From contig NC_090599.1 of the NCBI RefSeq assembly GCF_000497125.1, forward strand, positions 186,001 through 250,000: a stretch of 64,000 nucleotides of DNA. The letters are read 5' to 3'. A program made the position numbers and the translations under genes. The DNA comes from Spironucleus salmonicida. Its lineage: Eukaryota. Numbering within the stretch: position 1 is the stretch's first letter; each line of letters begins with the position of its first letter. Under the pieces are notes generated by a model. The model made no database searches, was not told where the DNA came from, and saw nothing but the letters and a program-made list of their open reading frames with translations. This document shows, in pieces, positions 22,803 to 37,553 of the stretch.

Positions 22803-25800
22803 ATGTCTATGAATTATGTTTTAGCTTAATCAATAGGGAGAGGTTCATATGGATCTGTTTACTATGCAATCGACCGTAAAACTAAGCAAGAAGTAGCAAT
22901 TAAGGTTATGAATAAAGCTATTTTAAAGAAATAGGTATTCTTTAATGATTCTACGGAAGATGAGGCACAAACCGGATTAACTTAAGTTTACGATGAAATT
23001 TAGTTTATGAGAGATTTTAATCATCCTTTATTACTTAGACTAGTTGAGACTATTGACTAAGATGAGAAAATTTATATAGTAATTTAATTAGCCGAAGGTA
23101 TCATTGCCACTATTCATTAAAGAGACTTATCTGATGATAAGTTACCTGACTGTATTAGTAATTTATTATAGTTAGAAAATGAAATTACTCCACCTCAAAT
23201 ATTATTAAACCTAGCGTTTCATACATCTATCGGACTTCTATATATGCACAAACGACATTACATTCATGGAGATATTAAACCTGCCAATATTCTTAGAACA
23301 CATAATGGGAGATATATCTTGGGAGATTTTGGTCTTTCTTAGCCGTTTGCTAAAGGTGCCAAGTATATGTAAATAGTTTCTCCAGCATTTTCTGCACCAG
23401 AATCGTAAGGATTAACTCCTTAAAATGATGTGTGGGCTTATGGTGTTGTTTTATTTTAATTGTTATTCGGAGAACATCCGGCAGTTCTTGCGGCATAATT
23501 GTGGAATGGAGAAAAGATAGCTCACTGGGGTTAAGCGTTAACTTCTAACCAAGAAAAATTTAAAGAACTATTAAATTTAAAAAGGGATGAATAAATTAAT
23601 AAACAGAAGCATGAGACCTAATTGGTGTCTTCTCATTATGATTTGAAGCTTAACTCAGATATTATTCATAATATATATGGAGTTTTGACAGAAATTACTT
23701 ACTTTTGTTTAATTGATTTGGAGAATAGAGTTTGCATGGAGAGTATTTATAACAGGCTCCTTGAATTTTATTGTAGAATTATTGCCGCTAAATACGCAAA
23801 ATATTTTTCAAAAGGATTTTTCTAATAACTTCATCCTATTTGTTAATAATTAGATATTATGAATGTTGATCATGTAGAATTTATATTATAGCTTAATTCT
23901 ATGAGGTTTTAACCACATATTCGCTAAAATTATTAACGAATATTTGAAGCATATACTGATATTAAATAAATAGATTTTTCATACTTTAAGTATTTGTATA
24001 GCACTCCAGAATAGACAATAAAATAGAATAACAAATCCTCAAAAGTGCTGATCGAAGACTCAACGGTAGAAGAAGAGATGAGCTATAACGATTTAATGAA
24101 TTATACTAAAACTTCATCAATATAAAGATAAATATCAAGTTAATCAATTAGAACAACTCCAAAGAAGTTAGGTAAAATTATAGACAATAATTAAGAACCA
24201 AATAGTCCAATAAGTAGTTTTTCTAGCACTAATAAGTTATAAATGACAGAATTCTAAGAAGAGGAGGTGCCAGTCAAAATAGATATTACTTAATAATGGA
24301 AAAAACCAGTAGGTTCTAGTTTAGCTAGTAAAATTGCGAATTTACCCCCTCCTAAAGTTATGACTAATGATTCTGATTCAGATAGATTTTTACCAGAGAG
24401 TAAACCTGTAGAATAATCATAAAATTTTAAGCCTCAATTTAAGAAGCCAGTAGCTCAAAGTTTAGCGTCAAAACTTGCGAGTATGCCTCCACCACCTGCA
24501 CTATAAAACGATAATATTTAATCTGATTCAGACGAAATGATTATTACTAAAAAGTAAGATAGAGGCTAACAACACCTATTGTAGTAATCAATACCAGCTA
24601 ACAAGAGGAAGAAACCAGCTAGTACAAGTTTAGCTAGCAGTATTGCTAATTTACCTCCTCCGTCATCAGCTGCCGTTGAAGATTCAGATTCTGACATAAA
24701 AACATTACAAACAAAAATAGAAGACTAAAAATAATAATCAGATGATTCAGATGGAGATCTTGGTTAACCTAAATAAACGTAAATTTAGTATGGTAAATTC
24801 AAGAAACCACAATCTCTAGCATCATCTATGGCTGCTAAATTAGCAGCATAGCCTCCTCCTGTTTAGGAAGAAGAAGATTCTGAAGGACCAATGGATATCA
24901 GAGGTGCTAAAAAGAAAGGAGAAACAGTTAAATACGCAATTAATTTTGATAAATTAAATCAGGAAGAAGTCGCACCAGTTTCAGTACCAATTCAGTAAGT
25001 AGACCAATAATAAATAGAAATTATAGAAGATGATGTTTTTGGTATAGAAACACCATAAAATGAGGTTATTAATTAAGAGACTAAGAAGGCAGATTTAGAA
25101 TAACGAAATCATTTCTTTTTGAAATTAGATTTGCATTTGGTAGATACAGATAATCTATCATCAAAATAAGTAAAATCACTGTTTAAATAAATTTCATACA
25201 CAAATGATGAATATAAACCTTTCAAATACGATCATAATAATGATTAAGCCAAAATATTAGGACTTGGATCATTTTCAAAGGATACCTTATCAGTTGGTCG
25301 CCGAGAATCTGAAGACGATGATATTTCTGATGACGATGATGACTTAGTTACATTTGATGATGATGGCGATGATGATTTTAACAATACTTTTGACTAAGTT
25401 TTCAATATTGAAGAGGATGAAGAAGATAAAGGGAAAGAGATTAGTGCTGCTGCTGCATAATCGTTAGTTAATAGAGGAAAAGGTAAATTTAAAACTTTAA
25501 GAGAGTCAGTTGATGAAGAAGAAGATATAGAGCCTCAGATGGTACCTACATTTAAAATTAACAATATTTTAATAGATGAAGAGGATGAAGATAATTTATA
25601 ATAATCAGACACATTTAATAAATCTAAAGACGATAATTTTGGATCATCTTTATTACCATTTGGATTATAAAAGAAGGATTCATCGGATGATGAATAAGTT
25701 TTTAAAATGAAATTTCAAGATTCTGATGATGAATAGCCATTAGACTTAACTGAAAAATCAGATGAAGCTTAATATATCCCCCCTAATAAATCAGTATTTT

Positions 25801-27158
25801 TATTGAATATTAATAAAATAAAAGAAGATGAAAAGGTACGATTATTTGAAGAAATATAAGATGAAGAATTTTAGACATAACTCACTCAGTAAACGACTAT
25901 ACCACTCTCAGCCCGTCATTTAGATGTTCTTAAAGAAGAAACATAAGATTAAGTAATACTTACACCGAAATAAATAGTTATATTCTTCCATCCGTTATTA
26001 TAACTTTTTATGGAGGTTAATTAGCATCTGACTCGAATAAATTCATAAATTTTAGTAAACTCAGATTATATATTTATGATTTAATAAGTTTAAGAGATTA
26101 TTGACGCATACACAAATAATATTCCATTAGTTACTGTAATTACAATTGAAATTATATTAGATCGATTGGAAATGTGGAAAAATTTAGTTGATTTAACACT
26201 ATAAGATCAAAATTAAAAAAGTTCGGTGAAATAAGTAGAACAATAACATTTAGTAGACCCCTAAAAAACTATTTAGTTTATTGTAGACATCCTTCTGGTA
26301 TAGTTTTAGAATATGTTTTAGGAGATAGAATTAATTTATGACAAATCACCTGCATTTTTAAATACAAAAACTGGCTGGTAAGTTAATAATCCATACACAT
26401 TATTTTAATTATTTGAATAGAAATTAAAAATAATTAATTCTTCACCTTCCAGAAAATATGGTGTTTCATTAACAATTAATGAGTAGCCTATGCTATCTTC
26501 ATTAGATAATAGAGAAGAATTTAATATTCATCTTTATATAGGATTGGATACTGCAGAATGTACACCAATTGTTGGGTTACGACATAAAATTGATGAAAAA
26601 ACTCTTTTTATATAATAAAGCTCACGTGCTTTTAAATTATAAGACACATAAGAGTAAATTTTACAATTTGCATAAATAGCATAAATTCAGGATAATAAAG
26701 CAGATGGGCTTACTAATTTTTAGCCTGTATTTATGAATTTCCTGTTTTTGAATTATTCTTTAGCATCAGATTACATATAAATTAATCATTAGAAGTCTGA
26801 TCTATTTAAATACTCATATATTAATCTTTAAAGATAAGCTATTCTACCAAACTTTTTTGCAAATTGCCTTTTTGAACTAATACTAAATTCGTACCAAAAT
26901 AGTCGTCCATCTATAATTAGAGCTAGTCTATTTAATGCAGATGGGTCATTTTATTTAGTTGTTTCTGACAGTGGAAACGGTTTATCATAGGACTAAACAG
27001 ATAAAATATTTTCTAATAATACTGGATCTTTAGGTACTGGATTAGCATATTTGCGAATGCTTGTAGGTTTTTATAATGGTATGATTAATGTGTCATCAGA
27101 TGATTAGTCAGGAACTAGAGTTATTGTAAAAATACCCATGGTATAACAAAATGAATGA
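22803..27158 (+). CDS. Ser/Thr protein kinase (CAMKK-like) fused via an acidic linker to a C-terminal PDK/BCKDK-like GHKL (HATPase_c) domain
   Basis: N-terminus: GRGSYG, VAIK, HGDIKPAN, DFG, APE, DVWAYG. C-terminus: LFELILNS (N box), VSDSGNG (G1), GSLGTGLA (G2), GTRVIVKIP. Same frame at sampled points, ~1451 aa. Confidence 0.82.
24297..24885 (+). repeat. Four imperfect peptide repeats (KKPxxxSLASKxAxxPPP...DS[D/E]) in the kinase linker
   Basis: KKPVGSSLASKIANLPPP (~24300), KKPVAQSLASKLASMPPPP (~24441), KKPASTSLASSIANLPPP (~24609), KKPQSLASSMAAKLAAQPPP (~24801), each followed by an acidic DSD/DSE tract. Confidence 0.85.
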
Positions 27159-28653: not shown

Positions 28654-29934
28654 ATGACACTTTTCCCTGGCTTCTCAGATTAAATAAGTTTATCAGAACA
28701 AATAATAAGTGAATACTATGAACATCTTTAAAATTATATTGATTCCTATTTAACAATTGCTATTCATTTTTGCAATGAAATTTTCACTGAAACTGAAGAA
28801 ATATTTGATTAATCTTGGAAAACTGACGTGGATAATATTTTTAACGATGAATCCATATTCAGCTGTATAATTCACGATCTAAATCCTATTTTTCTATAAT
28901 CACCTTCTTTTAAACTTTTCATCGAACTATCAAAAACCCTAGCATTACCTAACCATAATCATATCACAGAAAACATACAAGTCAATAATATTCCTTCTTT
29001 AAGGTCTAACATACACATCAATAAAGCCTGTTAAGTTGTATAATTCACTGATTTTTTGGAAAAGCATTATGACCTAAAAACGTTTAAAATCATCGATTTT
29101 GGAGCGGGAAAAGGATACCTTTCGACTTTTTTAGCATTTGATCGCTAGTATATCATAATAGCTGCTGAAGCATCCTTTTTACATGCAAAAGCCTTATTTC
29201 AGCGAATTTCGAAACTATCCAAAAATTATCCAAACTAGGATCGTCTCAATATCGCAATTGGTCTGATATCTCCAGAAACAGGTGCATCGGATGTAGTAGC
29301 CGGTGCCTTTCCATGGCGAGACTTCGAGAAATAGCGAATTTCGACTAGCGGCCATGAACCACACTCGCCAATTTAGGGCGAATGCGCCGCTCAATTTCGA
29401 AAGGCCGAGGTTTAGCACGATTGTCTGATTATTGGCCTGCACACCTGCGGGGATCTGGCGCAAATCTGTTTGAACTTGGCAAGCAAGCGCGTCAAAATCG
29501 CAACGATTGGATGTTGCTATGGGCATATCACGTAGAAGTGTTTTCCAGCTACTGAATAAGGTGATCAGATTGTTTAGCATATCTCGAAAAATAGTAAAAA
29601 TAATGGTCGTGGAATGAAAATGTTTGATTATTTTGTTCCAAAGGTGCTGTTTAACTATGCAACCGGCGATTTCGGAATAGACCTAGATGGGTGCAAGCAA
29701 ATGCTTGAAAAATTTATTTTGCGCGCAAAAAGCGATAGGAAAGAGGAGGATTTGGCCAATTAGATTTGGAAGATGAAACTGCATATAATAATCAGATTAG
29801 TTTTTGGCAAGGTTTTCGAGAGTTTTATTATAGTAGACCGATTGGTGGCATTAAGAAAGAGGGGGGTCGAAGCTGGGATATTTGCTATAATAAATTAATT
29901 CAGTCCCCGTGGGTTTGGAATTTGTACGAAATGA
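28654..29934 (+). CDS. METTL25/RRNAD1-like SAM-dependent methyltransferase
   Basis: IIDFGAGKGYLS (motif I), IIGLHTCGDLA, IGCCYGH, FESFIIVDRL, terminal FSPR. Confidence 0.85.
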
Positions 29935-30033
29935 TATAGAATATTATTATATTTACATACTATACTAAATAACATTAATATAAGATTTTATAATTATATA
30001 TAATACTATAAATAAACTTTTCTAGAAATTACT

Positions 30034-30041
30034 TTCCGCAA
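30034..30041 (+). promoter_or_regulatory. Candidate start-proximal element TTCCGCAA (dynein gene)
   Basis: Same 8-mer lies within 0-3 nt of the ATG of three genes (5218-, 30045+, 55245-). Confidence 0.45.
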
Positions 30042-30044
30042 AAT

Positions 30045-33000
30045 ATGTCGTTCAACTTAGAAGAGATTGTTAAAGAAGAAGAGAAGGTTATTTGTAGAGC
30101 CTTGCGTGATTCTAATAATCCCAAGATTGTTAAAGAAGATATGGCTATTTTTACGGGTCTTATTGAAGATTTGTTCCCAGGTGTTCGTATTGACCGTTTG
30201 ATAGACCCAACATTTGAAAAAATGATTGCTGAATCATGCAAAGATCGTGGCCTCTAGCCTGAGTAGTCATTTATGATTAAAGTGGTACAGTTTGAAGAAT
30301 TGTTATAAATTAGACATTCAATCTTTATCCTAGGTTTTGCTGCAGTTGGTAAAACCTCAGTTTGGAAAGTATTAGGTGATACTTATAAGAAATAAGGTAA
30401 AAAATTTGTTCATCATGTTATTAATCCCAAAGCTGTTACTACAAAAGAATTGTATGGTTACATTCAGCCAGCAACAAGAGAGTGGAAGGATGGAATATTA
30501 TCTACTATTATGCGTTCAATGGCAGAGTTGCCTGATACGCCTCAGATGCCAAAATTCTTTGTTTTAGATGGAGATATTGATGCTCTTTGGATTGAGTCAA
30601 TGAACACAGTCATGGATGATAATAAAATTTTAACATTGGCTTCCAATGAGAGAATTCCATTACGTCCTTCTATGCGTATGATATTTGAAATTGGATCATT
30701 AAAGTATGCTTCTCCTGCAACAGTTTCTAGAGCTGGTATCATTTATGTTAATGAGTCAGACGTTGGCTGGCCTTTTTACTTTTAATCTTGGATTGAAAAA
30801 TTAGAAAGTTCATTAGAAAGGTCAACTATTACAGTATTTTAATAGAAGTATGTTTAACCTTGTTTAGAAGAAATTAAGAGAAACTATAAGACTATTGTTC
30901 CTATTAATGATATGACTACGGTTTAAACTATTACTAGATTAATGACCTCCTTGTTAGATGATTATAATAAGAGCCCAGCAGCTAAAGTCAATTTAGCTGC
31001 AAATATGGCTAATTAACAGGCATAACAGTCTGGACAATCTAACTAAATGCCAGATTATTCAAAAGATGTTATAGAATATTTCTTTATATTTGCTGTTGTT
31101 TGGTCTATTGGTGGTGTATTGTTCAAAGATTAACTTAACAATGATTTCAGAAAGAACTTTTCTAAATTTTGGAGACCAGCTTTCCCTAAGGGAATAGTTT
31201 TCCCAGCTCAAGGCGACATATTCGATTATTTTGTTGAAGTTAATGCCGAAACTGGTCAACCAGACTGGAAACTGTGGTCTAGTCAAGTTTCTCCTTATGA
31301 TCACGATGCTGAATAAGCTGTGAATAATATCCACGTAGAAACAATCGATTCGTATAGAATCCACTACATTATGGATAATTTGTTAAGAAATGGTCATCCT
31401 ATTTTGCTAGCAGGACCGGCTGGTTTAGGTAAATCTGTCTTGCTAAAATCTAAGTTGAAGAAGTTAAACGATTAACAGTGGTAATTTGCCACTATTAGTA
31501 TGAATTATTATACTACTTCTGCATAGATATAGATGGTATTAGAAACTTATATAGAAAAGAAGGTTGGTAATAAATTTGCTCCACTTGGAACAAGAAAGTT
31601 AATTTACATGATTGATGATTTAAATATGTCCAAAGTCGATGAATATGGTACTTAGTAACCCATAGCATTGTTAAGGCAACACATAGATTATGGATTTTGG
31701 TATGATAGAGATAAATTAGTTACCAAGGAAGTATCTAGTGTTTAGTTTGTTGCCTCTATGAATCCATACGCTGGTTCTTTTGAAATTGATCCACAATATT
31801 AATGGCATTATTCTCCATTTTCAGTAGATGTTCCCAGTGAAGAAAATTTACTGCAAATATACAGCTCAATCTTAAATGCTCATATGAACCGTGAAGGTGT
31901 TAATTTTAAGAAGGAGTTATAGTAATGTGCTACAGCAACTATTAAGACTTTACTTAAAATACATTCTAAAGTTTCTTAAGAATTCTTGCCAACTTCAATC
32001 AAATTCCACTATCAGTTCAATTTACGTGACTTAACTAATATTGTTGCTGGTATTATGAAGGTCAAACCTGACCATTTTAAAGAAGGTCCAGTAAACTTGG
32101 TATAACTCTTATTGCATGAATGCGAAAGAGTTTATTGCGATAGAATGTGTGAACAAGATGACAAGGAAAAGTACGAAAAGTTAGTTTAGGATTTAGTAAA
32201 GTAAGAACTTAGCACCGTGACTGCTATTGATACAACACGTCCCAAGTCTGCGGCATCTACATAGATTAATATCAATATGGATTAAGTATTTTCTCCTGAG
32301 GCAAATTACTTTTCTAATTTTGCATTAGGTATCGGCGAAGGTAGTTATGCCCCATTATAGAAGTATGATAGAATGAATTAATTGCTTAATGAAGCGTTAC
32401 TATCACATAATGAAAGCAATGCCGAAATGAATTTAGTATTGTTTAAGGATGCTATGCAACATGTTTGTCGAATCTCAAGAATTATCAAGACCTCTGATGC
32501 TTTATTGGTAGGTGTAGGTGGTTCTGGTAAATAATCATTGGCTAGATTAGCTGCTTTTATCAATGAATACGAGGTATTTTCGATTACTATTTCTTCTACC
32601 TATGGTGTTGCTGATTTTAAAGCTGATTTAAGAAAACTTTATCGTAAAGCTGGTGAAAAAGATATACCAACTATGTTTTTGTTCACTGATTAGCAAATTA
32701 CTAACGAAGAATTTTTAGTTTATATTAATGATTTGTTATCATCTGGTTTCATAGCTGGATTATGGCCTGCTGAAGAAGAGGAAGAAGTTATTAATAATAT
32801 GCGGAACAGAGTCAAGGATGCTGGCATTCCTGACACTAAGGAGAATGTTATGTAATTCTTCATTTAAAAAGTTAAGGAGAATTTGCATGTAGTATTAGGG
32901 TTCTCGCCAAACGGTGATGCATTTAGAGTTCGTGCTAGGAAATTCCCTTCTATTGTTAATTGCACAACTATTGACTGGTTTATGCCATGGCCATATGAAG

Positions 33001-36000
33001 CATTAGAGTCTGTTGCTTTCAACTTTATCAAAAATAGAGATAAGACCAAGGAAAAGAAATATGATGATGTTATAGTTGATTTATCTGATGAATAATGCTT
33101 AGCATTAGCTAAATTTATGGCAAAAGCAAATGAATTAGTAAATACATTATCTGAGAAATATAAGAGGTTAGAGAAGAGATATGCGTATACCACACCAAAA
33201 TCATTTTTAGAACTTATTTCTCTTTATCTTAGATAGTTGTATTCTAGAACTCAACAGATTTAGAATTCAATCAATCGTTTAGAAAATGGTAATGCTACTC
33301 TAATTAAAACTGAACAAGATGTTGGAGAATTAAAAACAAGACTTGAAGATTAGAAAGTAGAAGTTAAAATATAATAAGATGCTGTAGCTGCTATGATTGG
33401 TGGTATTACCGCAGAGAGAGAAAAAGTGGGTGCTAAAGCCGCAGATGCTGAAATTGAGAAGTCTAAAACAGCTTTAGTCGAAGCTGATGTTAACAAAGCT
33501 GCTAATGAAGCTAACAAGGAACTTGAGAAAGCCAAACCTATTTAGGAAGAAGCAGAAAGAGCCCTAAACACCCTTAATAAGGATAACTTGACAGAATTAA
33601 AATCTTTCGCTAACCCTTCCTCCGAAGTCGCTAGAGTTATGGAAGCAGTTATTATTATGCTCAACAAACCTGGAGTTGTTCCTCGTGATTTATCCTGGAA
33701 GGCTGCTAAGAGTTTAATGGCAAATGTTGATAAGTTTTTAAAACAATTGTAAGAGTTTGATAAGGAAAATATTAATAATGCTAACAAATAGGCTGTTCTT
33801 AAGTATACTAAAGATGAGAATTTCACAGGAGAATATATTAAAAGCAAGTCAGGTGCTGCTGCAGGTATTTGCGATTGGGTTAGAAATATTATCAAATTCC
33901 ATGATGTATTCCTATTTGTTGAACCGTTGAGATAGAATACAATGGAATTATAAGTATCACTTGATGGTGCTTAGAAACGTTTAAAGCAAGTAGAGACATA
34001 AGTTAATTTGCTGAATGAATCATTGGGTAAATTAGAAGCTGAATTTAAAGCTGCTGAAGATAAGCGTGATGCGGTTCTGAAAGATGCAGATGACATGGAG
34101 AAGAGATTAGAACTAGCTAATAGATTAGTTAATGGTCTTGCTTCTGAGAAAGTCCGTTGGAGATAGTCTGTAGAGAATCTTAAATAAAGAAACAACACAC
34201 TCTTGGGCGATGTTTTGATCATTGCAGCCTTCATCTCATATTCTGGTGCATTTTCTAGAAATTATCGTACCGAAATGATGGATGGATGGATGATTTTGAT
34301 AAAAGAACTTAATATTCCTATTTAAGAGGAGTTTGATCCTTTATCATTACTTACAGACCCTGCGGTAATTGCCTAATGGAATAATGACAAGTTACCAACA
34401 GATCGATTTTCTTTAGAAAATGCTTCGATATTCTCGAATTGTGACCGTTGGCCTTTAATTATTGATCCATAACTTTAAGGTATGGAATGGATTAAGACCA
34501 GAGAAGCCAAAAATAATTTGAAAGTTATTAGATTAAATCAAAAAGATTGGCTTAATGTTGTTAAAGATGCAGTTGAAAATGGTTATCCAGTACTGGTAGA
34601 AAATATCGCTGAAACTATCGATGCCGTTTTAAACCCAATCCTAGGCCGTGAAATTGTAAATAAAGGCAAGGCTAATTAAGCTATCAGGATTGGTGACAAG
34701 GAGATTCCATATCATAACGATTTTAAAATCTTCTTCTAAACCAAATATCCTAATCCTCATTATTCTCCTGAAATTTAGGCCTAAACCACTCTAATCAACT
34801 TTACTGTCACAGAAGAAGGTCTTGAAGACTAATTACTCGCTGATGTCGTTCTAGAAGAAAGACCAGATCTGGAGGAACTCAAGACTAAACTCATGAGAGA
34901 GCAAAATGAATATGCTATCACTCTTTAGTAGCTCGAAAGCGACCTTTTAGAAAGACTTTCAAAAGCAGGAGATAACATTATTGAAGATATAGGCCTCATC
35001 ACAAATCTTGAGAAGACAAAAGCTACGTCCACAGAAATCGCAATTAAAGTGCAAGAAGCGAAGGAAACAGAAGTTAATATCAATAAAGCTCGTGAAGAGT
35101 ATAGACCAGTAGCTTCAAGATCATCAATGTTATATTTCCTCTTAAATTCTTTAGCTGTAATTGATCATTTTTATTAATTTTCACTTTCAGCCTTCAAAGT
35201 AGTATTCTTCAGATCAATTCGCGAATCTGAAAAATCAGAAGAAGTACAATAACGTGTTTTGATTCTTCTAGACTCTATTACTTATGGAATTTACTGTTAT
35301 ACTACAAGAGGTCTTTTCGAACGTCATAAATTAATTTTCAACTCATAGCTTTGTTTCAATATTTTAAGAAAAGCTAATTAATTACCTAATGCAGAATTCT
35401 AATTTTTATTGAGAGGAACATAGGCTGTTGGTCGTGATAATACTCTAGGAGAGTTCATTTCTAACTCGTCATGGGGATGTATTTTAGCTTTAGCATAAAA
35501 TATCCCTGATGTTTTTGCAAAATTACCTGATGATATTGAAGGTTCCGCTAAGCGTTGGAAAGAATGGGTCCAACACGAAACTCCTGAAAAAGAAAAATTA
35601 CCATAGGATTGGAAATCTAAGACGTAGCTATAATAATTATGTATTATTAGGGCGTTGCGTCCTGATAGATTATTGACCTCAATGTCACAGTTCATTGCAA
35701 ATTCTATTGAATCAAAATATATTGAGGCAGTACCTTTCAATTTCCCAGAAACTTTCAAAACATCATCTAAAACAGAACCAATATTCTTTGTATTATCACC
35801 AGGTGTGGATCCTGTCAAGGACGTTGAACTTTTGGGTAAGAAGCTGGGCTTTTCATTCGATAATGGTCTGATTAAGTCAGTCTCTTTAGGTTAAGGATAA
35901 GAAAAGAATGCAGAGAGATTTGTTGAAGAGATGTCCCAAAAAGGCGGATGGGTCTTATTATAAAATATCCATTTAATGAAAAACTGGTAAGTTAGATTAG

Positions 36001-37553
36001 AGAAGTTGATGGACTAGATTTGCTAGCCAACAGCTCACGATAATTTCAGATGCATGATTTCTGCTGAACCGAATCCAAATCCTACTATAGCTGCAGTTTT
36101 GCCTGGTATCGTTTAAATGTGTATTAAGGTTACAAATGAACCCCCTACTGGTATTAAAGCCAATATGAATAGAGCTATCGCACTATTTAATAATGATGTA
36201 TTCGAATCTTGTTCGAAAGCCAATGAATTCAAATCTATATTATTCTCATTGACGTTCTTCCATGCTATTTTGTTAGAAAGACGTAAATTTGGTTCAATTG
36301 GATGGAATACACCTTATAATTTCACGAATGGTGATTTGACCATTTGTAAAGATGTTCTATTTAATTACCTAGAGGCAAATGTCAAAGTTCCGTGGGATGA
36401 CCTTAAGTATATGTTTACTGATATCTTTTATGGTGGGCATATTGGAGATAATTTAGATCGCAGATTTATCAAGGCATATGCCAACGAGATTTTCTCAGAC
36501 GCTCTTTTCGAGGATGGCAAGGCTCTTGCTCCTGATTTCTTCGCACCTCCTCCTATGACTTTTGATGGATATAAGTAATATTTTAATGAAACGTTACCAC
36601 CTGATAATCCAAAAATGTTTGGTTTACATCCTAATGCTGAAATCACTTATTTAACTTCTTAATCTAACACTTTATTTGCTATGCTTATGTAAATGCAGCC
36701 TTCAGATGCAGCCGCTGTTGGTGAGGGTGGTGAGGAAAAAGATTTCAAGGATAGAATCGAGGAATTAATCTAATTAATCCCAGAATAATATAATGTTGGT
36801 GATTTGATGGAGCGTAATCCAGATGCTTTGCCATACAATTCAGTTTGTATTTAAGAATGTGCTCGTATGAATGCGTTAACTAATCAAATGAAATTGACCC
36901 TTACAGACGTAAAATTAGGTCTTAATGGTGAACTGACAATTTCTGAGTAGATGGAAAAGATTATTGATGCTGTTCGTTTAGAAATAGTACCAACTATTTG
37001 GAATAAGGTTTCTTATCCTTCATTGAAAGGGCTAGCCCCATGGCTTAAAGATTTAGAACATAGAGCAAAATAGTTATCTGATTGGTCTGCGGAATTAGGT
37101 TTACCTAAATGCGTATGGCTTTCGGGATTATTTAACCCTTAATCTTTCTTACGTTCTGTAATGTAGACTACTGCACGTGTGAATTAGTGGCCTTTAGATA
37201 TGATGGACTTAAATGTAGAAATTACAAAGAAAGAATTATCTGATATTACTGCTGCTCCTAGAGAAGGTGCATATATCACTGGTCTATTCATGGAAGGAGC
37301 CCGTTGGGATAAAAAATCCTCATCCATTAGAGATGCTATTCTTAAAGATCTATATCCTTAATTGCCTCCTATTTACTTAAAAGCTGTCACGAACGACAAA
37401 ATTGAAATTAAAGACACTTATGAATGCCCAACCTATATGACAAAACAAAGAAACGGCTTAACGTACGTTTGGAGCTTTAATGTTAAGACTAGGGAGCCTT
37501 CATCAAAATGGATTTTGGCTGGTGTTGCTATGCTTTTGGCTAACGATGTTTGA
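30045..37553 (+). CDS. Outer-arm dynein beta-type heavy chain, C-terminal part only (AAA1 lid, AAA2-4, stalk/MTBD, AAA5-6, C-terminus; ~2502 aa)
   Basis: [31 protein letters not shown]2 [41 protein letters not shown]3 [11 protein letters not shown]4 GVGGSGKQSL. Terminal [26 protein letters not shown] is typical of the DNAH9/11/17 class. Confidence 0.95.

Follow-up and report, generated by a model that had tools for sequence, protein, structure and literature searches.

A CAMKK-Type Kinase Joined to a Histidine-Kinase-Like ATP-Binding Tail in Spironucleus salmonicida and Other Diplomonads

Introduction

Fungal group X hybrid histidine kinases (HKs) carry a Ser/Thr-kinase-related domain in one chain with GAF, HisKA, HATPase_c, and receiver (REC) domains (PMC6324907), and several modified HKs (CSK, the phytochromes, and ETR2) use an HK-derived ATP-binding domain outside the His-Asp relay (PMC5054060). 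Here, we describe a diplomonad protein that shares features with both groups. It is encoded at positions 22803–27158 of a 64,000-nucleotide stretch of the Spironucleus salmonicida genome (contig NC_090599.1, positions 186,001 to 250,000; hereafter, the window) and consists of an N-terminal Ser/Thr kinase of the calcium/calmodulin-dependent protein kinase kinase (CAMKK) type, a long linker, and a C-terminal tail predicted to adopt the GHKL ATP-binding fold. Compared by description, the group X proteins keep GAF, HisKA, and REC, none of which is found in the window protein, where a CAMKK with intact catalytic residues is joined to a dismantled His side. Modified HKs differ in another way: they bear sensor domains and have no eukaryotic protein kinase in the same chain.

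A survey of the Giardia kinome (Manning 2011, PMC3218828) describes this organism as lacking classical HKs and, for both Giardia and Trichomonas, counts the pyruvate dehydrogenase and branched-chain ketoacid dehydrogenase kinases (PDK and BCKDK) among the losses. The HK counts given in PMC6324907 are zero for S. salmonicida and Giardia and seven (all hybrid) for Trichomonas; that survey required two of HisKA, HATPase_c, and REC, and a protein combining CAMKK with HATPase_c would therefore be skipped. The Giardia HK proposed in PMC4670223, GL50803_10403, is a different gene. The original prediction, made from the letters of the window alone, suggested that the two-domain protein could be an undescribed signaling module. 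This is correct as far as discussion is concerned, since the main text of PMC3218828 does not contain the word "HATPase" and its accessory-domain section is silent on it, but the domain pair itself is catalogued: Additional file 1 of that paper enters GK045 as a CAMKK, rates the kinase as active, and assigns it an HATPase_c domain (E 2e-06). Our literature search, to which subscription papers were mostly inaccessible, found no paper that discusses the fusion. The fusion is real, conserved, and catalogued, yet apparently unstudied; we add the hexamitid copies, direct tests of PDK against HK descent, the anatomy of four helices followed by a split catalytic and ATP-binding (CA) domain, an unrecognized insert with an invariant His, and an acidic N box.

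Results

A Single Open Reading Frame Encodes Kinase and Tail

Read with NCBI genetic code table 6 (TAA/TAG = Gln), positions 22803–27158 of the forward strand form a single open reading frame (ORF) of 1,451 codons. TAA or TAG is read as Gln at 112 of them, and a search for an overlooked in-frame TGA, which could have split the gene, found this codon at the terminus only. Under table 11 the window holds just 1 ORF of at least 150 amino acids, compared with 100 under table 6, recognizable genes among them; table 6 is therefore the working code. At the TGA frequency of the window, a TGA-free run of 1,451 codons has a chance probability of about 1e-12. A Pfam scan of the protein returned two domains above cut-off, Pkinase (residues 5–228, E 1.1e-35) and HATPase_c (residues 1352–1446, E 1.2e-8), and every motif quoted in the original prediction was found at the position given there.

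Contigs from four runs of one study (taken for RNA by a guess of the search tool; no run is recorded as such) align along the ORF without variant letters, indels, or joints. One of them covers 23991–26138, that is, the entire linker, where read continuity had been proposed as a check; over the whole ORF continuity was not obtained, as none of the contigs among the pieces listed spans it, and a contig is not proof of a single transcript. This, and a Hexamita record pair broken into 319 and 1,491 residues, is what one might cite for an artefact in which two genes have been joined by the TAA/TAG reading or by assembly. Against it stand the absence of indels or joints from the aligned contigs and the presence of both domains in Giardia (2,721 and 2,177 residues) and Hexamita (1,807 and 1,819 residues) proteins. 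The orthologues already refute the artefact, to which we give a negligible probability. Because whole-length orthologues exist in three further species, we regard the matter as settled: 22803–27158 encodes one fused protein, and the two kinase-type domains seen in one ORF by the original prediction are borne out by the reading frame, the Pfam pair, and orthologues with identical domain order.

The Fusion Is Conserved among Diplomonads

A phmmer search with the last 432 residues gave 206 proteins at E ≤0.001, of which the best 150 were listed. The top matches, Giardia intestinalis (GK045/GL50803_96363, 2,721 residues) and G. muris (TNJ30186, 2,177 residues), are both named "Kinase, CAMKK" and have Pkinase first and HATPase_c last; six fragments (P0003, P0005, P0008, P0009, P0010, and P0019) were also among the matches. 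Ten further matches scanned by Pfam were all ordinary sensor-kinase proteins, and a local kinase profile detected no further kinase domain in any stored phmmer match. Two Hexamita inflata copies (CAL6040960 and CAL5994260; 1,807 and 1,819 residues) were added by alignment search, in which the kinase aligned to the window protein at 40% and residues 503–1426 at 29%. Full-length proteins of the four species share the domain order, with an N-terminal CAMKK, a conserved island in the linker, an insert motif, and a C-terminal HATPase_c. The window protein is the most compact of them (1,451 residues versus 1,807–2,721), and its tail can therefore be modeled as one module.

The tail is single-copy in the S. 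salmonicida genome. Compared with G. muris, the CA domain (37.7% identity) is as conserved as the kinase (38.6%) while linkers diverge, differing in length by more than 1,000 residues among orthologues. The search for the same architecture, suggested by the original prediction, thus succeeded within diplomonads, but no relative was found outside them; two of the three word-indexed searches, both made with alignments, recovered Hexamita but failed to return known Giardia members of suitable length, so that a blank elsewhere among metamonads carries little weight. With the tail alone, a word-indexed protein search returned only the window protein itself among 4,263 candidates, and metagenome scans for relatives of the fusion gave none. 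We propose that the fusion arose in the diplomonad ancestor or earlier.

Some Hexamita records (P0184, P0185, and P0167) represent one copy split into 319 and 1,491 residues and another with a divergent C-terminal end, probably through assembly frameshifts.

The N-Terminal Kinase Resembles AMPK-Activating Kinases

When a profile of the family kinase was compared with PDB sequences, solved CAMKKs were the best matches (CAMKK2, 5e-28; CAMKK1, 2e-25), ahead of the next family at 2.6e-18; the next-best kinase of the same genome scored 1e-13. Residues K34, E65, D157, N162, and D175 are invariant in all four full-length orthologues, and the APE motif is kept in the window protein. The likeness to the CAMKK/SAK1/GRIK class includes an insert between the VAIK and αC motifs. 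A difference is that the HRD motif is HGD in the window protein (non-RD), its Arg being replaced by Gly or Ala (HGD/HAD) across the family. A calmodulin-binding autoinhibitory segment is a feature of metazoan CAMKKs only. With the catalytic residues intact and the orthologues named CAMKK, the complete CAMKK-like kinase of the original prediction holds, and the N-terminal kinase, as judged from its sequence, is a diplomonad CAMKK.

The CAMKK/SAK1/GRIK class activates AMP-activated protein kinase (AMPK; bioRxiv 10.64898/2026.09.26.754375); by analogy, the diplomonad enzyme may phosphorylate the activation loop of AMPK-family kinases. For S. salmonicida, two CAMKKs and eight kinases of the AMPK class appear in Table S2 of PMC3916229; Giardia, by its kinome survey, has lost the kinase LKB1 (PMC3218828). 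Each of the 11 T. vaginalis CAMKK rows examined in the supplement of the latter paper is a short, stand-alone kinase, and that file does not contain the word "HATPase". The S. salmonicida genome also contains an ordinary AMPK-gamma gene (E 2e-27 to human gamma-1), and for this reason we rejected the idea that the tail replaces AMPK-gamma.

The Tail Combines Four Helices with a Split GHKL Domain

The structure of the tail was predicted by AlphaFold2 with a 13-row family alignment (predicted local distance difference test score, pLDDT, 65; predicted template modeling score 0.62); a single-sequence fold with pLDDT 35 was not used. In the model, four long helices (residues 1055–1180, low confidence) precede a GHKL domain, which begins at residue 1190 and is broken by about 110 mostly beta residues (1227–1337, pLDDT mostly 70–86). 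Across this interruption, the model CA domain aligned with 134 of the 139 residues of the VanS CA domain (2.6 Å, Z 11.4), and comparison with CA domains overall gave Z 11.4–11.6 and rmsd 2.6–2.7 Å over 124–134 residues. The last two predicted helices superpose loosely on the dimerization and histidine phosphotransfer (DHp) hairpins of HKs. Residues N1362, D1389, G1391, G1393, F1403, G1411, G1413, G1437, and T1438 are invariant in four of four full-length orthologues; all ATP-contact positions (N1362, D1389, G1391, G1393, G1411, G1413, and T1438) are thus kept. The roles of the N and G1 boxes are described in PMC5054060. Sequence and model agree that the tail has a GHKL/Bergerat fold with N, G1, and G2 boxes. 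The structure prediction called for in the original prediction thereby returned the expected match, and both the GHKL fold (Pfam, structural alignment, invariant box residues) and, at low confidence, the helical region ahead of it were recovered.

Neither Pfam nor PHROGs nor the sequences of the PDB gave a match to the insert; judged by eye, its topology might be KA1-like, which is a tentative guess. It contains a motif, E-x-[TS]-P-x-V-G-x-R-H, found in all four full-length orthologues and in every fragment that covers it, and its invariant residues are G1247, L1248, A1251, E1252, P1255, V1257, G1258, R1260, and H1261. In the ESM Atlas, the tail matched HATPase_c clusters at 0.96; helices plus insert matched clusters without a name at 0.90 and one cluster that is 41% HisKA at 0.87, which we treat as leads only. 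A BFVD search returned viral histidine kinases only, and the helical part alone gave three chance matches among PDB sequences. Other HATPase_c genes of the genome resemble MutL/PMS and Hsp90 by eye.

By Sequence, the ATP-Binding Domain Is Closer to Sensor Histidine Kinases than to PDK/BCKDK

The original prediction likened the tail to PDK/BCKDK. In a single-sequence PDB search, however, ZraS came first and none of the 35 matches was a PDK or BCKDK, and a profile of the tail matched SrrB (3.3e-11) and HK853 (1.9e-9) far ahead of PDK (0.16–0.28). HKs also lead in Foldseek (7e-7), where PDK2 does not appear until rank 49 (2.8e-5). For comparison, we fetched five PDK-family sequences and scanned four of them for BCDHK_Adom3: all four controls matched (E 1e-30 to 1e-53) but none of the 13 family rows did, although a strongly diverged form could escape. 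The same profile (PF10436) had no match in the S. salmonicida genome, in a search whose controls were silent as well. Hence, of the profiles named in the original prediction, HATPase_c is matched, and BCDHK_Adom3 and HisKA are not.

Aligned by hhalign, the CA part scored 52 against the five PDKs and 131–163 against 12 random five-sequence HK sets; the PDKs scored 92–100 against six such sets. The aromatic residue at N+4 occurs in six of seven family rows and in 51 of 76 scored HK segments (of 78) but in none of five PDKs (Ala in all five), and the HK-type terminal Pro is present in the family (P1445 in the window protein). We also built a tree of 35 CA domains (5 family members, 5 PDKs, and 25 HK segments drawn at random from the 78; 129 columns), in which the family (98/100) stands beside two HKs (87/84), apart from an equally long PDK branch.

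Four points temper the case for HK descent. The HK sets for hhalign came from matches of the same query, and their scores are inflated. Structural scores are near-equal (Z 11.4–11.7 for HKs, 10.1–10.9 for PDK/BCKDK). The helical part scored 20 against PDK (E 0.053) and 11–17 against the HK sets, none significant. Finally, an approximately unbiased (AU) test leaves a grouping of family and PDK standing (p-AU 0.425). The last three of these, the four helices modeled before the ATP-binding domain, and a Glu in the N box would all suit a true PDK/BCKDK descendant that was retained through fusion after pyruvate dehydrogenase had been lost. Such a descendant should not, however, lack BCDHK_Adom3 or rank so far under HKs in profile searches; the two long branches do not come together in the unconstrained tree, both the aromatic at N+4 and the Pro at the end are of HK type, and PDK structures align over the ATP-binding domain only, from model residue 141–165 onward. 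We consider PDK descent improbable and descent from a bacterial-type sensor HK likely, with good confidence; the PDK/BCKDK-like ancestry of the original prediction is thus disfavored, the AU result notwithstanding.

What the tail shares with PDK/BCKDK is the GHKL fold, the lack of the His, the N-box Glu, and, as predicted at low confidence, a helical bundle ahead of the ATP-binding domain; besides the profile differences, it has a short lid and HK-type hallmarks and lies inside a large protein. With class I sensor HKs (WalK, SrrB, HK853, ZraS, and VanS) it has in common CA sequence and fold, the N, G1, F, and G2 boxes, and a preceding helical hairpin. It differs from these in lacking the H-box His, in an acidic residue for Asn at N-4, in four helices per chain, and in the 110-residue insert, and the protein has neither sensor nor receiver and is fused to a Ser/Thr kinase.

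Full PDK/BCKDK-family genes were encountered as uninterrupted ORFs in three Sumerlaeota metagenome-assembled genomes (L011:969–2144, L013:1062–2150, and L014:1020–2177), with BCDHK_Adom3 (E 1e-43 to 1e-53) and HATPase_c; they are candidate bacterial members of a family usually called mitochondrial. Partial PDK-family ORFs in two actinobacterial metagenome-assembled genomes (L015 and L016) end abruptly after the G2 box and may be intron-bearing eukaryotic contamination.

An Acidic N Box Recalls Ser/Thr-Specific Relatives

Residue N-4 is Asp or Glu in seven of seven family rows (Asp in six; E1358 in the window protein) and Glu in five of five PDKs, whereas 74 of the 76 HK segments scored have Asn there. 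The PDK-like N box of the original prediction therefore survives in this shared acidic residue, and PDK-like chemistry reached by convergence is possible. An N-box Glu can act as a general base. One reading makes the tail another active protein kinase, HK-derived and Ser/Thr-specific in the manner of PDK, the phytochromes, and ETR2; E1358 would be the base, and the target could be the linker of the protein itself, its CAMKK domain, or some metabolic enzyme. The acidic N-4 would suit it, and PMC5054060 lists modified HKs that have turned into Ser/Thr kinases. The residue is, however, the shorter Asp in six of seven rows, the lid of the window copy is short, and there is no known substrate. The same acidic residue, moreover, serves ATP hydrolysis in Hsp90, MutL, and gyrase and occurs in some true HKs. 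We regard a second kinase of this type, and equally the targets proposed for it, as unlikely but deserving of attention.

Parts of a Phosphorelay Were Not Found

HisKA found no match in the window protein or in the 13 family rows. Residues 1064–1074 and 1076–1148 contain no His, nor does the modeled counterpart of the H-box helix in the superposition; no His of the helical part is conserved over the four species, and H1063 is common to the window protein and Hexamita only. When the family is aligned with the DHp domains of HKs, at a non-significant E of 0.24, it matches at a conserved PL and where the second helix ends, and the position of the His is taken by Tyr (Val in Hexamita). The absence of an evident H-box His, noted in the original prediction, is therefore upheld. 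Profiles of REC (PF00072), HisKA, and histidine phosphotransfer (HPt, PF01627) domains had no match in the S. salmonicida genome and were positive in 12, 12, and 9 of 14 control genomes, although diverged genes could escape. In our reading, the tail would be neither part of a phosphorelay nor a pyruvate dehydrogenase kinase.

A non-canonical His autokinase might do without these parts, if H1261 of the insert replaced the H-box His and its phosphorylated form gated the CAMKK without a receiver. H1261 and R1260 are invariant in all four full-length orthologues and in the covering fragments; H1261 lies 101 residues ahead of N1362, and a global profile alignment sets it on the H-box His. That alignment was forced, however, and the local one excludes H1261. 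Its surroundings are predicted strands and a loop rather than a DHp helix, the spacing is more than 300 residues longer in Giardia, and REC and HPt were not found in the genome. We consider an H1261 autokinase improbable.

Discussion

We propose that a diplomonad CAMKK was fused to the helical hairpins and CA domain of a bacterial-type sensor HK, and that this core may have lost its H-box His and receiver partners and gained the 110-residue insert while retaining the ATP pocket. The tail would still bind ATP or ADP with Mg, probably with slow ATP turnover via the acidic N-box residue E1358, and its nucleotide state could act in cis, by way of the long flexible linker, on the kinase itself or on the access of the kinase to AMPK. 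This reading, in which a kinase that activates AMPK carries a His-less nucleotide switch for ATP and ADP in the same chain, is, in our judgment, about equally likely to be right or wrong. The broader proposal of the original prediction, a repurposed and likely cytosolic regulatory GHKL tail wired to a CAMKK-like kinase, is supported.

Several points tell against a nucleotide switch. Nucleotide binding, regulation in cis, and an AMPK substrate are all read from sequence; the ordinary AMPK-gamma of the genome makes a second nucleotide sensor superfluous; a switch does not account for the invariant H1261 in the insert; and the window copy is the most eroded of the family, having a short ATP lid and neither the N+4 aromatic nor the Gly that opens the G2 box. 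The erosion of lid and G2 box, the huge insertions in Giardia, and nucleotide sensing by AMPK-gamma would also fit a catalytically idle scaffold, or a dimerization or targeting domain in which bound ATP is purely structural. The ATP-contact residues are, however, invariant across diplomonads though the nearby surface varies, and we find an idle tail improbable.

If the nucleotide state of the tail gates the kinase, this would explain the activation of AMPK in these anaerobic cells and would be a new reuse of two-component parts. A live autokinase tail, phosphorylating His1261 or Ser/Thr in cis and so gating the sole conserved AMPK-activating kinase of diplomonads, appears decidedly unlikely; if real, it would be a one-protein, receiver-free relay from a bacterial-type core to eukaryotic AMPK signaling in organisms held to be HK-less. 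Diplomonads have been described as lacking both HKs and PDK/BCKDK (PMC3218828, PMC6324907), yet an HK core appears to be under selection across the group, joined to the single CAMKK of Giardia in a lineage that has lost LKB1. The kinase is single-copy and, in contrast to the host CAMKK, would carry in its tail an ATP pocket specific to the parasite, and the compact window copy is a practical choice for expression and structure solution.

Linker and Domain Map

The features of the protein are collected in Table 1. The acidic repeat linker of the original prediction is confirmed by its composition and by four S[LM]A..PPP repeats, at residues 506, 553, 609, and 675. Each repeat is followed by an acidic Ser-Asp run (24318–24863, +); from their sequence, these runs are possible CK2 sites. 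The Hexamita orthologue has its own, different repeat array, with acidic runs similar to those of the window protein. In the island of about 70 residues, two short motifs are kept in all four species, and in Giardia the first of them lies shortly behind the kinase extension; the island could be a docking element.

Table 1. Features of the kinase-GHKL fusion, in window coordinates
Feature	Positions	Strand	Basis
Whole ORF, orthologue of Giardia GL50803_96363 (GK045, CAMKK)	22803..27158	+	table 6 translation, homology searches
CAMKK-type Ser/Thr kinase domain, about residues 1–330	22803..23792	+	Pfam, profile search, invariant columns
Post-kinase hydrophobic extension, residues 331–410 (Hexamita alignment reaches residue 383)	23793..24032	+	alignment
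Linker of low complexity (Ser, Pro, and acidic residues), including the four S[LM]A..PPP repeats	24033..25082	+	sequence
Conserved linker island, residues 765–835	25095..25307	+	alignments, four species
Second acidic stretch, residues 836–1027, 31% Asp/Glu	25308..25883	+	composition
Four long predicted helices, residues 1055–1180	25965..26342	+	AlphaFold2 model, pLDDT ~45–66
GHKL CA domain, first strand-helix-strand, residues 1190–1226	26370..26480	+	structural alignment from model residue 163 = residue 1190
Inserted beta-rich domain, ~110 residues, within CA domain	26481..26813	+	model, invariant columns, null database searches
GHKL CA domain, main part: N box E1358/N1362, G1 D1389-G1391-G1393, F1403, G2 G1411-G1413, G1437-T1438, terminal P1445	26814..27143	+	Pfam, profiles, invariant columns

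Other Observations

A dynein heavy chain ORF of 2,540 residues (29931–37553, +) lies elsewhere in the window. It starts within the first AAA domain (AAA_6 profile, 233–327) and lacks the N-terminal tail, and the gene directly upstream encodes a methyltransferase; it is possibly part of a split dynein gene. A dynein gene is split in Giardia. The Hsp90 gene of Giardia is split and trans-spliced; on the small contig C29 (L004:1–2235, −), Hsp90 is one long ORF with only 2 TAA/TAG codons in 745 residues. At a further locus (L020), a long simple trinucleotide repeat immediately precedes the start of a ULK-like kinase.

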